Source: Planctomycetota bacterium (GTDB lineage: Bacteria; Planctomycetota; SZUA-567; H5-PLA8). From it: DNA of 64,000 bases. The first letter of the stretch is position 1; each line of letters starts with the position of its first letter. A program made the position numbers. Location: positions 1-64,000 of the forward strand of contig BTVV01000024.1 of NCBI GenBank assembly GCA_045863855.1, read 5' to 3'. Below, one piece after another: positions 3,001 through 9,000 of the stretch.

Positions 3001-6000
3001 ACCCGGCCAAGGTCACGTTAAAGCGTTCGGCTGTCTCCACGGCCAGGCTGGACGGCGCACCGACGGCCGCGACGACGGGGATGCCGGCCATCACGGCTTT
3101 CTGGAGCAGCTCGTAACTGGCCCGTCCGCTGACCAGGAGCACGCGGTCGCGCAGGGGGAGTTCGTCGCGCAAAAAGTGCGCGCCGATGAGCTTGTCGAGC
3201 GCGTTGTGCCGGCCGACGTCTTCGCGAAGGTCCAGCAGTTCGCCGGCGGCGGAGAAGAGCGCTGCGGCGTGGAGGCCGCCGGTGCGTTCGAAGACGGCTT
3301 GGGCGGCGCGGAGTCGTTCGGGCATGGCCTGGAGCCGTGCGGCGGAAAGCAGCGGTTCTTGCGGGACGGGGAGCGGTTCGGCGTGGATGGCCAGGGCTTC
3401 CAGCGAAGCCTTGCCGCAGACGCCGCAACTGGAGGTCGTGTAGAAGTTCCGCGACACGCGGACGAGGTCGCAGGCCACGCCCGCGCGAAGCGTGACGCGG
3501 ACGGCGTTCTTGAGCTGCGGTTCGGGCGTACCGTCGACGCAGTAGCTGACGTCGAGCACGTCGTCGCGGCGCTTGAGCAGCCCTTCGGTGAAGAGGAAGC
3601 CGGCGGCGAGTTCGAAGTCGTCGGCGGGCGTGCGCATGGTCGCCCGGGCTTGGAAGCCCGGGCCATCCCACACCCCCTTTAAGGAGGGCCGTACCCATGG
3701 CCGTAACCGTTCGCCACGGCGTCAACACGCTCACGCTGGAGACGCTGGCCGGGAAGTCCGTTGCGCAGGTCCGCGAGGAGGTCGGCGGCCTCTTGAACGT
3801 CCCCGAGACGGCGCAGGTCCGCGTCAACGGGCTCCCGGCCGTCGACGGCCAGGGCGTCCCCGAGGGCGCCAGCGTCGAGTTCGTGAAGGTCGCCGGCGAG
3901 AAGGGCGCGTAGCCCTCGGCCGGAGTCCACCCTAGGCGGCGCGCCCTGACCAACCCGGCTGGGGCGCGCCGCCATAAACCCAGGAGCCCCCATGGCCACA
4001 TCAGACGAACGCCGGCGCATCGCCATCGAAGGCGGGCTGGTGCGCCTGGAACGGACAGTGATCGAACGCGAAGCCCGTACGGAAGACTTTCTGGCCGAGA
4101 TCGCGCGGATGCAGCCGGTGGATACCGGCGTCTTGCCCGAAGGCTGCATGCTCATGGCGCGGCGCTGCGACGCCCAGAAGCGCTGCTCGAACCTGTACGT
4201 GATCGAACGAGCTCCGGGCATGCAGCGGATTCACTTCAACGGCGATCCCGGCGCCGAAGACGACGCGGAAGACTCCAACGCTGCGCACGAAGTCGTGGAA
4301 CTGAACCTCTCCTGGCCGCGCACGCTCTGGATCTGCCGCACGAGCCAGGCCGCGGCGGAGGCGGCGATCGTCGTCACGGACTTGTGGGTCGTGGCCGTGA
4401 AGACCTCCGTGCGCGAGACCGAACGCAACACGCCGATATTCTGCCTGCCCATGCCGAACATCTACCACGAGGGCCACGGCGCCATCTGCATGGGCAATCT
4501 TTCCGTGGGCAATTGCGAGAACCCGCTGGCCGACCGGATCGACGCGGCCATCCACGGGGTTTTGGATTCGGCCTGGAACACGGACCTGATGCCGGAGTTC
4601 GAGCGCCTGGAGATCGCCAGCCTGGCCGACTGGGCCGAAAAGAGTGCCGCCGATCCGGCGTTCCACCGTCAGATCACCTATCAACCGCACCGCCAAGCCA
4701 CCTTGGGCGGACTCCTGCTGCACCTGGCCCCCAGCCCCTAACCCAGAAAGGACCGCTACCCGTGAAGCCCTTCGATGCCGTGGAAGCCGCCCTTCGAAAC
4801 TGCCCGCCGTTCGAGAGCCGCTCGCTGGGCGATTTCCTGGGCGATCTGGTGACCGAAGATCTGGACGCCCTGGCGCAGCTGCCGGGATCGCCCGGACAGG
4901 TACTGGCCGCGCAGTTTACGTGCTACGCCCGCAGTTCCGTCCCGCTTAGCGAAGCGCTCCAGCAGCAGACCGAGCCTTTCTTAACCTTGCAGGACACGCT
5001 GGGGCGATTGTCCGCTCTGGGTGCTTTACCGGCCAAGCGCAGGAGGTCCGCGCGTGCAGATCCATCCGATTCCCAAGCCCGCTCCGGGCGCTGAGCCGGA
5101 GTTGCCGAAAGAGCCGCTGTGTTACGTCGCCGGCGCCACGGGGTTGTTCAAGGTCATCCGAAATCCCTTCTACAGCGCTTGCGTCCCGGCCGGCGAAGTG
5201 GCCGGCTTGGCCGATCTGAAAGAAGGCGCCCAGTTGCACGTGCCCAAGCTGCCGCTGGAGCTGTTCCGCCGGATCGAGTCGTTCTTCGTGGCCGTCTTCC
5301 ACAAGTACGGCTCGGAGGCGGTGGTGCTCCTGTACTGCGATCCGGTGAAAGGCCGCTGGGAGGCGCTTGCGCCGCCGCAGACCGTGCGCGGTCTGCATGT
5401 CGAGTACGGCCTGGAGACGCTCCCCGAGCCACCGCCCGGGTATCAGCTCTTCGGGACCGTCCACAGCCATGCCAACGTGAATGCGTTCCATTCGGGGACC
5501 GACGACGAAGACGAAGCGCACTTCGACGGCTTGCACATCACCGTCGGGCACGTGGACAGGCCGCAGCGCAGCTACGCCTGCCGCTGGATGATCGCGGGCA
5601 AGGCGTTCAAGTCCGACCTTGACGACGTCGTCCGGCTTGAGGCGTTGCCGAAGGCCGAGGCGCAGTGGCTGGCGCAGGTCACCCAGGCGCGTCCGAAGCC
5701 GGCGCAAGCGCCGGCCTTCGCCGAGAGCCGATCGGGTGGGGGGCAGCCGTCGTTCTGGGAGGAAGCCCTGCCCGAAGAGTTCGAGACCCACGAAGAGTAT
5801 CTGCTTTACCTGGAGTCCTTGCGCGAGGACCTCGACGCGCGGATCTACGAGGCCGGACAGTACGAACCCCCCATCGGAGAACGCCATGCGGCCACACGCT
5901 GAACGGATTACTTTGGTCGGTTGCGGCGGGATTGGGAGCTGGTTTTTGGCCCCGCTGCTGCGCTTCCTGAACGCCGAGCGCTATGCCGGCGAGATTCATC

Positions 6001-9000
6001 TCTGGGACGGCGATCGCTATGCCGAAAGCAACGCCCAGCGCCAGGAGTTCGCCTTCGAGCGCCTGGGCGCAAACAAGGCGCAGGTCCAGGCTGAGTGCTT
6101 CCTGACCCATTATCCGGCTCTGCGGCTCTATGCGCATCCCGAGTACGTCGCCGACCGAACGGTGGCCGACGCAGTACGCGATCGCACGATCGTGCTGGTG
6201 GCGGTGGATAACCACCCCGCTCGGCGCCGGATCGCGTTGCAGGCCGAACGGCTACGCGACGTATGCGTACTCTCGGCCGGGAACGAACGCCTCGACGGGA
6301 ACGTACATGTCACCTGGCGCCGAGGCGGGCGCGATTTGACCGTGCCGCTTTTGGCCCGGCATCCCGACGTCGCACGCAGCCAGGCCGGCGACCGAGCCGA
6401 GGCCGGCTGCGAAGACCTGATCGAACAGGGCGAGACCCAGCTTCTGGTGACCAACTTCATGGCCGCCGCGGGGCTCTTAGCCGCGTTTCATGCGCTCTGG
6501 ACTCACGGCGAGCGCCACGGCCGGCGGAAGAACTCGGTCGTGCCGCAGGAGCTTTACTTCGACGCGGGAGCCTGCGCGATGGCGCTGGTTCCCGCCGCAC
6601 CACGTTAGGAGAGCCAATGCCGATCTTCGTCCTGCATGCGGCCCACGTGCTTCAGGCCGCCCATAACTCCAGTACGCAGGTGATCCTCCCACTTACCGCC
6701 ACGGACTCGAGGGACAACTACTCGATGGACGAAGGCGACGGCCTGTGGATCCCCGAATACGTCGCATGGATGGAACAGATCGTCCGGCGCATGACCGGAT
6801 CGCCTTCGTTTGCCTTCTCGAACGATCGGGAACTGGAGGACGATTTGTTCTATGACGTGCCCGTCGCCCATCTGCGTGGGCTGTTAATCGAGTTCACCAA
6901 CCGTGTCTACCCGGGTTGGCGCGATCGAATCGATCTGCCCGACTACGACGACGTGCGTGAGGGCTGCCGCGGTTACTGCGACGGCTGCGACAGCGCGTAC
7001 CGGACTATCTACGGCACCTACGACGGGCCTCTGGCCGAGGACGTCGAAGAGGACGAGGACGCGGACGAAGCGAATCTGGACCCACAAGAGCGCGAAGCGC
7101 GCATTCATCGCAACGCCGCGCGTTCTGTTGAGCGGATGCAACTTCAAGCCGACCAGGAAGCCGCCGAAGACGAGGTGGTCGATTCCGAATGGGTTTGCGA
7201 CACCGACTGCGATCCGTTCCTGGATCATGTAATCGAATCGTTCCGCGAACGTATGGAGTGCGACACCGACCGGCTCGACTCGGAGTGGGACGCGTTTACG
7301 AAAGAACGGGGCATCCGGATCTTCCCGCCGCTCTTGGTTTCGTTGGCCCGCGCCTCAGCCTAGGGATGCGTCCGCAAAAAAAGTCCACGCCTTTCACGCT
7401 CCCCACGTTCCTGGGGAATCCCGCTTTTCCAACCCTTGAACCCGGAGCAGCCCATGACCACGAACCTGTCGTTAGGCACGGTGTTTTTCCTGGACGGGCT
7501 CGTGCCCGTCACCACCGACCGCGTCCGTTCAAGCCTGGAGGCCTCGGGACTCGATCCGCAGATGGCCCGCGACCTAGCCAAGCGCTTCTGCTTCTCGCGG
7601 GCCAAGAACAAGCTCCGCGACGAGGGGCTGATCGACGAAGTCGGCGAGACCGATACGCGCTGGACCTGGCAGCTCTCGCGGCGCTACCGCGAAGAGAACC
7701 GCCTGGGCTACGAGTTCGAAGCCGCGTTTTGGTTCGATAAGGCGAACCAGTCCGTGGGCGCCGACAACGCGGTGCTCCTGGAGAAGGTCCAAGCGCTCTT
7801 CGCCCAGTACGGCGCTCTGTACCTGGCCGGGGACATCACCAAGGTCGTACGCCGGATCTTCGAAGCCCAGAAAGGGATGGTGAAGCTGCGCCACGCCGGC
7901 GCGATCTACTTCGTGCCGCGGGAGAACCGCGCCCTCATGGATAAGGTCGCGGCCTTCGTGCGCGATCTGGGCGGGCAGTGCGTAACCGTCCCCGTGGGGG
8001 CCGAGAATACCATGGTCCGCGATAAGGCCTTGGAGATGCTCGTCGAGGCCGTGCGCGGCGATCTTGGCAGGGTAGTCGGCGAGATGAAGGCCTTGGAGGC
8101 CCAAGGCGAAGCGCTCACCCCGCGCAAGGCCAAGAACCGTTGGCAGGAACTGGCCGCGCAACTCGATCGAATCAAGCTCTTCGCGCGGAGCCTCTCGACC
8201 GATGCCACAGGGCTCTTGGGGCAGGTCCGGGATTCTGAGTTGGACCTGGCGTTGGTGGCCCAGGCCGACCTGGACGTGATCGCGGCGTTGGCGCACGCCG
8301 GCAAGGTGGGCGGGGCGCTCTCCCAGATCGTCCGCCATGCCTACGCAGGGGAACTCCCGCCGATCCGCTCGGCGCGGGTGCGCGCCGCCCGCGTGGTGCT
8401 GGAAGGCCCGGAGACGATCCAGTTGCCCGTGGTCGCGGGCCGAGCGCCCGCGCTGGAAGCGTAAGTACCTACCGTGTCGCTCACCGCGAGCGCGCTTACT
8501 TCCCCGATCCCTGAACAGGAGGCTTGTACATGCAGGCCATGACCGTACTGCTCGCCGCCCTCAAAGCACGCCTGCCGGGCGTGCATTTACGCACCCTCGA
8601 AGAGGCTCGTGCCCTGGAAGCCCTGCGACAGGCCGTGCAGGCCCTGTCGAGCCAACTGGCGCCGCGGGTGCTATGGCGCTGGTCTTCGGCCTCAGGGCTG
8701 CATCACCTTCCGCCCAGCGACGATCTGCCCAGCATGCCCGTCCAGGAACCCTGCGCCCTAGACGACGCCTTTACGCACTTCAAGAAGTCCTCTGAAAATA
8801 TCGTCCTGGCGTTGCTCGATCCGTGGGCCGAACTGGGCAACCCGTATTTCGTGCGCGCGTTACGCGAAGCGCTGACGCACGCGCGGGGCTCCGGGAAGGC
8901 GATTGTGCTGGTCGGGCGCGATTGGAAGATCCCGCCCGAACTCCAGGCCGATCTGTTCGTTGCGAACTTGCCGCTGCCCACGCGGGCCGAACTCAACGAG

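Follow-up and report, generated by a model that had tools for sequence, protein, structure and literature searches.

A 64,000-nucleotide stretch of planctomycete DNA (hereafter the window) carries, near its start, genes for a ubiquitin-like protein (Ubl), an E2-like protein, a JAB peptidase and an E1. Do these genes form a conjugation system of a family of its own, as the survey's finding proposed, and whom would such a kit serve? The reading we favour, at a probability of about 70%, is an element-encoded Ubl conjugation system that is a sister branch of class 6d/PRTRC and serves its carrier element or phage.

The operon and its mobile setting

The five genes that the survey placed between positions 3697 and 7363 (Ubl, E2-like, JAB, E1 and a 248-aa gene) are all present there, and we count a 110-aa gene as a further member of the conserved block. 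On the forward strand, the operon consists of a 71-aa Ubl precursor with a beta-grasp fold (3697..3912; residue conservation, structure model and fold matches), a 249-aa E2-like protein of the Prok-E2_D/PRTRC-B type with Asn156 and Cys166 (3992..4741; HHalign and conservation), the conserved 110-aa accessory gene, which has no assigned function (4762..5094), a JAB/JAMM metallopeptidase of ~282 aa with the catalytic Glu and an HSH-x7-S-x2-D motif (5054..5902; profile and conservation), a stand-alone ThiF-type E1 of 240 aa with nucleotide-binding motifs, Cys175 and no rhodanese domain (5886..6608), and an acidic accessory protein of 248 aa in which four Cys, C121, C124, C194 and C198, are invariant (6617..7363). 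All six frames are open, each with a ribosome-binding site; the JAB start is placed at a GTG behind an AGGAGG site at 5054, the longest ORF running from 5021. No sigma-70-like promoter was found.

Downstream element genes on the same strand (7436..11607) encode DUF6744, an AAA ATPase, a DUF1257-like protein, DUF2997 and a small protein, with an NYN gene among them on the reverse strand (10086-10679). The terminator-like hairpin at the block end (11631..11666, forward strand) is a consensus match only, and shuffled sequence yields more such sites than the region does. The 3' part of a tRNA-Val(TAC) gene follows (11846..11893, forward strand), of which genome G002 has an intact copy and G000 none; this fragment, near 11850, is likely the right attachment site of the element, and contigs X1 and X2 run across it. 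On the other side, a 5'-truncated fdhD meets the module at a suspect join (3622..3654), probably an assembly chimera. As the join at 3640 is unsupported, we rejected fdhD both as insertion site and as sulfur partner.

That the module travels on mobile elements, as the survey had it, is borne out by G002, where the block 3640-11528 recurs collinear and 90% identical at another site, and by the neighbours in relatives, among which WGR-ligase, PDDEXK and integrase genes were indeed seen; DUF932 did not turn up, though no search aimed at it was made. A terminase gene lies near the kit in G012, and relaxase-, coupling-ATPase-, SLT- or recombinase-type genes occur in 22 of the GTDB loci drawn from the best 80 of 108 matches. 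Within the phylum, 9 of the 301 genomes carry the kit.

Core proteins and their distribution

The window Ubl ends in F-V-K-V-A-G-E-K-G followed by one Ala, and the tail conservation reported earlier holds, with K69 and G70 each kept in 119/120 Ubls. The mature end is predicted to be Gly70 once Ala71 is removed. Three features imply cleavage after GxKG: 44 GTDB and 13 viral Ubls run 1-8 residues past this motif, some precursors string Ubl copies head to tail with each copy ending in GxKG (three copies in L085, two each in L108 and L010), and L068 and L077 have Ubl-E2 fusions; the Ubl precursor of phage Edson has five copies. The model confidence was reproduced (pLDDT 91.6, against ~91), as was the lack of a Pfam match, and an NCBIfam search was empty too. 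The modelled fold is a beta-grasp, as claimed, but not specifically ubiquitin, because the best fold matches, MoaD and Fubi, tie at Z 8.3; moaD_arch gives a weak match to 14 of 64 Ubls.

The catalytic residues are much as constant as the survey described: E2 C166 is found in 129/129 and N156 in 128/129 domains, and E1 Cys175, given there as nearly invariant, in 141/141, both cysteines being counted over unique domains at iE<1e-8 and coverage of at least 70%. In the JAB metal site, E, H, H and S are each kept in 136/137 domains and D in 135/137. With E1 Cys175, E2 Cys166 and this metal site conserved, a thioester cascade fits, and we infer conjugation itself from gene content and residues. The E2-like model (pLDDT 91.1) gave no Foldseek match at E<=0.001 and matched solved E2/RWD folds weakly (Z up to 4.9), and the E2 profile matched no PDB sequence. 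This is no evidence for a new fold, and the E2 assignment is drawn from profile homology to PRTRC B and Prok-E2_D. By analogy with ThiF/MoeB, the E1 is probably homodimeric; PDB entries 9EGB-9EGD matched its profile no better than MoeB did, and the PRTRC ThiF alignment did not find them at 1e-8.

The weak family matches reported for these proteins were reproduced, all below curated cut-offs: 23.3 bits for the E2-like protein against Prok-E2_D (cut-off 25), 23.6 bits for the JAB against Prok-JAB (cut-off 25) and, in NCBIfam, PRTRC_A for the JAB (E 1.8e-7, 30.9 bits vs 101.8), PRTRC_B for the E2-like protein (E 0.0037, 16.6 bits vs 131.45) and PRTRC_ThiF as best match of the E1 (57.8 bits vs 144.75). 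None of the curated cut-offs of TIGR03735-03738 was reached, and the TIGR family for protein C had no match at all.

Co-occurrence was recounted in 79 GTDB loci, which come from the best 80 of 108 matches, were picked by the E1 pattern, served to iterate the profiles, and include kin loci that are not independent. The JAB is present in 74 (75 in the survey), the E2 in 69 (52), the Ubl in 59 (53) and all four genes in 59 (47). The 20 loci without a Ubl mostly have a contig end within ~2.3 kb of the E1. All four genes were found in 37/47 loci of Chloroflexota, 7/14 of Planctomycetota, 10/12 of Patescibacteria and 5/6 of other groups, and three gene orders occur among complete loci. The host range given earlier lacked the viral loci, of which 59/80 carry all four genes.

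A sister branch of PRTRC and its viral form

The PRTRC cassette (TIGR03734-03742) is what Iyer, Burroughs and Aravind described as class 6d (2006; PMC1779556); in the literature searched, we found no paper testing a class 6d system. The likeness to the window kit is extensive. The order Ubl-E2-JAB-E1 equals C-B-A-ThiF, a small stand-alone beta-grasp protein has a conserved C-terminal Gly and a tail of the form F/Y-x-[KR]-x-x-G-x-K-G, the E2 Asn and Cys, the E1 Cys and the JAB metal ligands are identical in alignment, a stand-alone E1 without rhodanese adjoins the JAB gene, and mobile elements carry both. HHalign probabilities were 96.6% over 183 columns for E2 against PRTRC B and 99.9% for E1 against ThiF, and the E2 Cys position is filled in 129/129 sequences here and 67/68 in PRTRC B. 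The N-terminal domain of the window JAB aligns to TIGR03735 positions 29-189.

Other PRTRC signatures fail. The Ubl has a longer MoaD-like body that is missed by the Prok_Ub (PF14454) and PRTRC C models; at E<=1e-3, no Ubl of the family was found with the PRTRC C profile, and HHalign of Ubl against PRTRC C gave a tail-driven 37.7% (E 3.4e-4). The His downstream of the E2 Cys is present in 1/129 sequences here vs 67/68 in PRTRC B, and in a joint alignment with PRTRC A, the conserved Arg and Trp of the JAB N-terminal domain are kept in 0/137 and 4/137. Sequence profiles of PRTRC F (n=55), which we took as the conserved alpha-helical third protein of class 6d, and of PRTRC E (n=58) found nothing in the loci. 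The family also differs in its own accessory genes, its other hosts, its phage forms and a separate E1 clade (support 93). As to the ParB-family gene of the PRTRC cassette, none is among the neighbour clusters common to at least four loci, a negative that covers these clusters only.

The survey's view of a distinct operon family marked by GxKG therefore stands in part: an intact module on mobile elements, scores below cut-off and a separate E1 clade speak for it, but the tail fails as a family mark, since 62/63 PRTRC protein C sequences have it. The caveat that the survey itself raised, that this could be a distant branch of class 6d, fits better. Judged by sequence, the kit is no separate class, because its tail, gene order and catalytic residues are all those of PRTRC too, and it is a sister branch, because several PRTRC/6d signatures fail and its E1 forms its own clade. 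Both E1 trees are quick searches with SH-aLRT support only, and exclusive sisterhood to PRTRC is unproven by a tree that lacks E1s of 6a, 6b, 6c and 6e. Class 6d, described in 2006, is wider than current models detect, as 3,005 clusters at 50% identity match the E2 profile at E<=1e-10, with outlying branches perhaps among them.

The viral loci with the kit ahead of an RNA polymerase and a Rho_N/SAP-like Ubl are new. Phage β'/β RNA polymerase genes are found in 49/80 viral loci and lie just downstream of the kit in 44/59 complete ones, where the kit keeps a fixed place 0.75-2.7 kb upstream, with Mre11/Rad50-like genes alongside. In these phages the kit also neighbours genes for FolE2 (in 35 loci), for a radical SAM enzyme (in 41) and for another ThiF-like enzyme (in 45), and the E2 has a ~600-aa extension (~850 aa in total). 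A Rho_N/SAP-like domain is present on 52/65 viral Ubls. The window E1 clusters with three viral contigs of 185-192 kb (support 99). The mReC phages pair β and β' RNA polymerase genes with a PF07068 capsid; of five viral contigs tested for PF07068, all 41-66% complete, one had it, and terminase PF03237 was found in one of five closely related contigs. A viral scan using the D69 JAB gave no match.

The 110-aa gene is confined to the subclade of planctomycetes and large phages, where it occurs in 7 loci, the viral L081 and L083 among them; the 248-aa gene was found in 11 loci, its four Cys invariant in an alignment of 8 rows. Neither has a family match in profile searches, and the ESM Atlas was empty for the 248-aa protein, which we regard as a candidate zinc-binding adaptor. 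Both were ruled out as PRTRC E or F, to which neither aligns. For the phage E2 extension, ESM Atlas leads were all below 0.9. A sliding-clamp link is unsupported in this branch: a clamp gene is present in one locus and the clamp-type motif is rare, Q-x-[SDTEA]-[LMF]-[FW] occurring in 1/77 and 1/70 C-terminal extensions of E2 and in 0/79 and 4/74 of JAB, and the single match of the window JAB is lost in L002.

Proposed function and known systems

The genes present and their co-occurrence, the conserved residues, the fold of the Ubl, the make-up of its precursors and the mobile setting are observed; from them we propose the following chemistry and target choice. The JAB would cut after G-x-K-G and expose Gly70, which the ThiF-type E1 would adenylate before holding the Ubl on Cys175; the Ubl may then be handed to E2 Cys166 and attached to a protein lysine, a link that the JAB could reverse. 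Specificity would come from parts that differ between lineages: the 110-aa and four-Cys proteins in the window, and the ~600-aa E2 extension in the phages with RNA polymerase. A more tentative joint reading is that large phages and other mobile elements run their own thioester cascade to their own advantage, the Rho_N/SAP-like Ubl of the RNA-polymerase phages tethering a transcription or DNA-processing protein and the four-Cys protein targeting in the planctomycete element. If so, the tag would come from polyubiquitin-like precursors, the phage target would be picked by the long E2 extension and tethered to nucleic acid, and the planctomycete element would have a version of the viral kit in which the four-Cys protein picks the target.

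Other functions would draw on the same genes. Defence cargo is common on integrated elements, and the kit might be a Bil-like anti-phage system that tags incoming phage proteins for the benefit of the host; Bil and Type II CBASS, the relatives that have been characterised, act in defence (PMC10557695; 10.1101/2024.11.21.623953), and excluding rival phages would suit a phage carrier too. We consider this unlikely, as the Ubl, E2, JAB and accessory genes are all without a PADLOC match, cultured phages carry outlying versions, and the fixed place upstream of RNA polymerase in 44 viral loci, beside Mre11/Rad50-like genes, gives the viral kit the look of a core block rather than that of a variable defence island. 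Quite unlikely, too, is a sulfur relay in which the E1 adenylates a MoaD-like carrier, the Cys protein gives a persulfide, the resulting thiocarboxylate thiolates a nucleic-acid base or small molecule, and the JAB matures or recycles the carrier. The MoaD tie, the moaD_arch matches, the FolE2, radical SAM and ThiF-like neighbours and the Rho_N/SAP-like domain would suit it. Against it, the E1 has no rhodanese domain, no sulfur-transfer family is among neighbour clusters common to at least four loci, the sulfurtransferase fdhD lies beyond the probably false join, and 69/79 GTDB loci (best 80 of 108 matches) and 66/80 viral loci retain an E2-type protein; class 6 neighbourhoods lack metabolic enzymes according to Iyer et al. 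(PMC1779556).

Finally, the window copy might be a functionless decaying remnant or assembly product, given a suspect join 57 bases before the Ubl start, a block without an integrase and split or partial genes in some relatives; the open frames with their ribosome-binding sites, the collinear block in G002 and contigs from runs of three studies that match the block at high identity, one X1 contig covering 3645-7302 without a differing letter, make this very improbable. For the favoured conjugation system, the K-G end matters in practice: trypsin would leave a single Gly (+57.02 Da, the carbamidomethyl mass), so that standard di-Gly searches would miss conjugates.

Among known systems, class 4 ThiS/MoaD with JAB shares a MoaD-like fold, a ThiF-like enzyme and JAB maturation, but the window operon contains an E2-like gene and no rhodanese or metabolic enzyme. 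Bil, CBASS and Bub conjugate proteins (10.1101/2024.11.21.623953). In Type II CBASS, Cap2 is an E2-E1 fusion accompanied by a CD-NTase, whereas the window E1 and E2 are separate; Cap2 models match only the E1 N-terminal part of the window proteins, and no nucleotidyltransferase match was found in the block. Bub (6e) similarly has JAB-cut Ubl-E2 fusions and multi-copy Ubls, but its E1 and E2 lack the catalytic Cys, both invariant here, and form oxyesters, and its operons carry DUF6527, which no gene of the window block matches. BilABCD Types I/II likewise combine Ubl, E2, JAB and E1 in a Cys-based cascade without an E3; unlike the single 240-aa ThiF domain of the window E1, BilD is multi-domain (IAD-AAD-CYS), the E2 is of a different family, and PADLOC Bil models match none of the four core proteins of the window.

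The bacterial Ubl systems with a characterised role, Bil, CBASS and Bub, are presented as pathways of immunity or stress, whereas the present kit is common in phages. Also related to it are outlying 6d-like cassettes on plasmids of Bacillota and Rubrobacter and in the cultured phages Arash, D69/D148/D181 and Edson, whose E2, JAB and E1 score on the profiles of the window family and whose Ubls have GxKG-type tails; in Edson and D69 the Ubl precursors are multi-copy. The E1s of these cassettes belong neither to the window clade nor to PRTRC, and their Ubls are shorter or apparently fused to the JAB N-terminus, that of Edson scoring better on the PRTRC C profile. The Ubl of Arash is an unannotated frame (L268:110-307), the E1, E2 and JAB of this phage were detected in its published particle proteome (PMC10585845), and the cultured phages with these outlying versions are direct test systems.

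The module, its neighbours, and the left join

The survey's finding of a four-gene ubiquitin-like conjugation module held in its basic terms: the genes encoding the ubiquitin-like protein (Ubl, 3697-3912), E2-like protein (3992-4741), JAB (5054-5902), and E1 (5886-6608) were all confirmed on the forward strand, with open frames and ribosome-binding sites, and the weak family matches of their products were reproduced. The block contains two further conserved forward-strand genes, both also present in viral contigs L081 and L083: one at 4762-5094 (in 7 loci) and one at 6617-7363 (in 11 loci), the product of the latter having four Cys invariant in 8 aligned rows. 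The predicted Ubl structure is a confident beta-grasp (pLDDT 91.6), as had been claimed, but ubiquitin was not singled out by the fold search, in which MoaD and Fubi tied at Z 8.3 (66-67 residues aligned, rmsd 2.0-2.4). Although the E2 was modelled with confidence (pLDDT 91.1), its matches to solved structures are weak, many top rows being E2 or RWD domains with Z up to 4.9, which lies inside the background of that search.

A block spanning 3640-11528 is present at 90% identity in the related genome G002 at a different site, where a WGR-ligase gene comes before it and an integrase fragment plus tRNA-Leu come after it. The copy in another relative, G012, comes after PDDEXK and terminase genes; the WGR-ligase, integrase, and PDDEXK neighbours reported for relatives were seen. 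In the window, the block ends at the 3' part of a tRNA-Val(TAC) gene that is intact in G002, and contigs from two sequencing runs (X1 and X2) extend past this end; no intact copy of the gene was found in the window's own genome. Upstream of the intact tRNA-Val in G002 is another element-like stretch (L259:9203-17232), which encodes a PolA-family polymerase, a replication-protein-like product, and an integrase. Genes for DUF6744, AAA ATPase, DUF1257-like, and DUF2997 proteins (7436-11333), an arrangement we take to be Ycf46-like, move with the element and are present in G012 and a third relative, G007. An NYN-domain gene (10086-10679) whose product has a small CxxC insert separates the AAA gene from the DUF1257-like one and is encoded on the reverse strand. 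Also on the reverse strand, 11947-13914 encodes a glucose-6-phosphate dehydrogenase with a cyclic-nucleotide-binding domain fused at its C-terminus.

At the left end, fdhD (2948-3673, with the join at 3640) is without its 5' part. Two other contigs of the assembly bear on this join: C146 starts with window 3622-3640 and runs on into the fdhD 5' part that is missing here, and C251 starts with the reverse of 3640-3654, followed by the G002-type upstream sequence of the module. Contigs of runs X2, X3, and X4 (three studies) diverge into other sequence at 3640, and no bridging of this position was found among the listed pieces of the four runs. The join probably arose as a chimera during assembly, although a genuine minority rearrangement may underlie it instead. 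Since one X1 contig covers 3645-7302 with zero differing letters, the module itself is unaffected. The window's contig looks circularised and rotated with dnaA placed first, and its end adjoins its start in G002. Two copies of the palindromic 8-mer GCCCGGGC, spaced six bases apart, lie at 3640-3665, right at this join and ahead of the ribosome-binding site of the Ubl gene.

Relatives, conserved residues, and Ubl precursors

Relatives were collected by E1 alignment: the best 80 of 108 GTDB matches gave 79 loci, and the best 80 of 105 viral matches gave 80. Gene content was scored by profiles iterated on these loci; all four genes are present in 59/79 and 59/80, respectively. As the loci were picked by E1 pattern and are mutually related, the counts are valid for this sample only. 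Identical length, coordinates, and Ubl sequence in GTDB locus L010 and viral locus L145 indicate that some "cellular" loci are actually viral. Among these best matches, Ubl-E2-JAB-E1 is the order of 47 GTDB loci and 7 viral ones; E2-JAB-E1-Ubl is found in 11 GTDB and 51 viral loci, and JAB-E1-Ubl-E2 in a single locus of each set. Some loci, namely L135 (17409-20079), L075, L014, and L084, have between two and five E2-like genes. Within the phylum, the E2 profile matched 9/301 genomes, the window's own included, and in a 50% library it matched 3,005 clusters at E<=1e-10.

Counted over unique domains only (iE<1e-8, 70% coverage), the E1 Cys175 is present in 141/141, the E2 Cys166 and Asn156 in 129/129 and 128/129, the JAB ligands in 135-136/137, and the Ubl Gly70 in 119/120. 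In the same GTDB and viral samples (best 80 of 108 and best 80 of 105), 44 and 13 Ubls, respectively, carry 1-8 residues beyond the last GxKG, 8 and 38 carry nothing, and 3 and 1 have a long extension; the strict pattern is missed by 4 and 13, nearly all of which end in K-G. Some Ubls are multi-copy (three copies in L085, two each in L108 and L010), with GxKG closing each copy, and Ubl-E2 fusions occur in L068 and L077. We infer that such forms require cleavage after the tail, a cut that JAB could supply; the Bub JAB performs such precursor cleavage (10.1101/2024.11.21.623953). In Bacillota and Rubrobacter plasmids (L164:4943-5980, L165:5602-6633, and L166:5554-6564), the JAB N-terminal part ends in xxKG and is apparently a fused Ubl.

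Viral forms and cultured phages

Among the viral loci (best 80 of 105 matches), 49/80 carry beta'/beta RNA polymerase genes, and 44 of these 49 have a complete kit, in which 0.75-2.7 kb separate the end of the Ubl from the polymerase downstream, and the E2 exceeds 750 aa. A Rho_N/SAP-like N-terminal domain is found on 52/65 viral Ubls of this sample, and nearby genes include those for Mre11/Rad50-like proteins, a radical SAM enzyme, FolE2, and WYL_2, besides one for a second ThiF-like protein. This last gene (L092:7559-8443 and 44 other viral loci among the best 80 of 105) lies between the Ubl and RNA polymerase genes, with a conserved DCRD motif and C-terminus. The polymerase-bearing carriers resemble mReC phages, in whose description "ThiF" and "ubiquit" are absent from the main text (PMC7481178), as are JAB, ThiF, and Ubl from that of a jumbo-phage survey (PMC7824862). 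An Asgard-virus preprint describes three ThiF-like genes in Nidhogg and interprets them as host-system hijacking. In Chloroflexota, the kit adjoins relaxase-, coupling-ATPase-, SLT-, and recombinase-type genes (22 GTDB loci among the best 80 of 108 matches).

The family JAB profile also matches the cultured phages Arash, D69/D148/D181, and Edson, and in the three examined (Arash, D69, and Edson) E2, JAB, and E1 each score on the family profiles. Bacillus phage Edson encodes a five-copy head-to-tail Ubl (gene 2080, L269:2173-3072) with E2, JAB, and E1 downstream, and Vibrio phage D69 (L168:1391-5948) a Ubl with three GTKG tails, E2, JAB, and an E1 with an open frame that extends beyond the annotated gene. 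Salmonella phage Arash has a 65-aa Ubl with a GTKG tail in a frame missed by annotation (L268:110-307); its E1, JAB, and E2 are Gp247, Gp248, and Gp249 in the numbering of PMC10585845, which is shifted by one from GenBank, and were detected with 3, 2, and 5 unique peptides, respectively (PMC10585845). As the proteome table contains 116 proteins and its authors allow for carry-over (PMC10585845), these peptides demonstrate expression, not packaging. The E1s of Arash, D69, and Edson fall outside the window's clade in our quick E1 tree, so these phages model the class and not the window's branch.

Proposed function and comparison with known systems

We favor, at a probability of roughly 70%, a reversible lysine-modifying cascade working for the carrier's benefit, each chemical step of which is inferred. 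JAB would expose Gly70 of the Ubl, E1 would adenylate it and form a thioester at Cys175, E2 Cys166 would take over the Ubl, and a target lysine would be modified, reversibly. A pass of the predicted E1-Ubl complex would be expected given how closely the pair resembles the solved ThiF-ThiS and MoeB-MoaD complexes. A Bil-like defence role seems unlikely. A sulfur relay, for which the fold match of the Ubl to MoaD speaks, we rate slightly lower still, and a dead remnant, with the frames open and the block collinear in G002, is very improbable. Bil, like Bub and CBASS, mismatches the module in E1 architecture or catalytic residues (PMC10557695; 10.1101/2024.11.21.623966).

The class and its tail are already known. 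Our literature search, with subscription papers largely outside its scope, found no description of the window's branch and no tested class 6d system. Some members may already be listed by Burroughs et al. (2011) or in supplementary operon tables of the preprints. What stands out is that the kit occurs in a phage core-block form and with polyubiquitin-like precursors, and that phages are available for testing.

Class 6d as originally defined combines a small Ubl and an alpha-helical protein with an E2 that has Cys and, downstream of it, a His, and with a JAB whose JAB-N domain carries Arg/Trp (Iyer 2006, PMC1779556). From the match of these features to annotated cassettes we equate it with PRTRC, which is cited only as a system linked to mobile elements (PMC3318190). 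The module shares with PRTRC its gene order, Ubl-E2-JAB-E1, identical catalytic residues, the GxKG tail (in 62/63 PRTRC protein C sequences), and HHalign probabilities of 96.6% for E2 and 99.9% for E1. In contrast, the E2 downstream His is present in only 1/129 of the family, the JAB-N Arg in 0/137 and Trp in 4/137, no homologue of protein E or F was found by profile search or alignment, the Ubl body differs, and the window proteins miss every curated cut-off. The quick tree of 60 E1s (36 of 76 non-redundant loci plus the window included) placed 38 family rows in one group (support 93) and 11 PRTRC rows in another (100); five ThiF-like housekeeping proteins of the window's own genome are separate from both (94). 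The proposal of a distinct operon family marked by GxKG is not supported, as tail, order, and catalytic residues are common with PRTRC; a distant branch of class 6d, with an E1 group of its own, fits better. Judged from sequence, the module is predicted to work like PRTRC, yet lies outside PRTRC as strictly defined.
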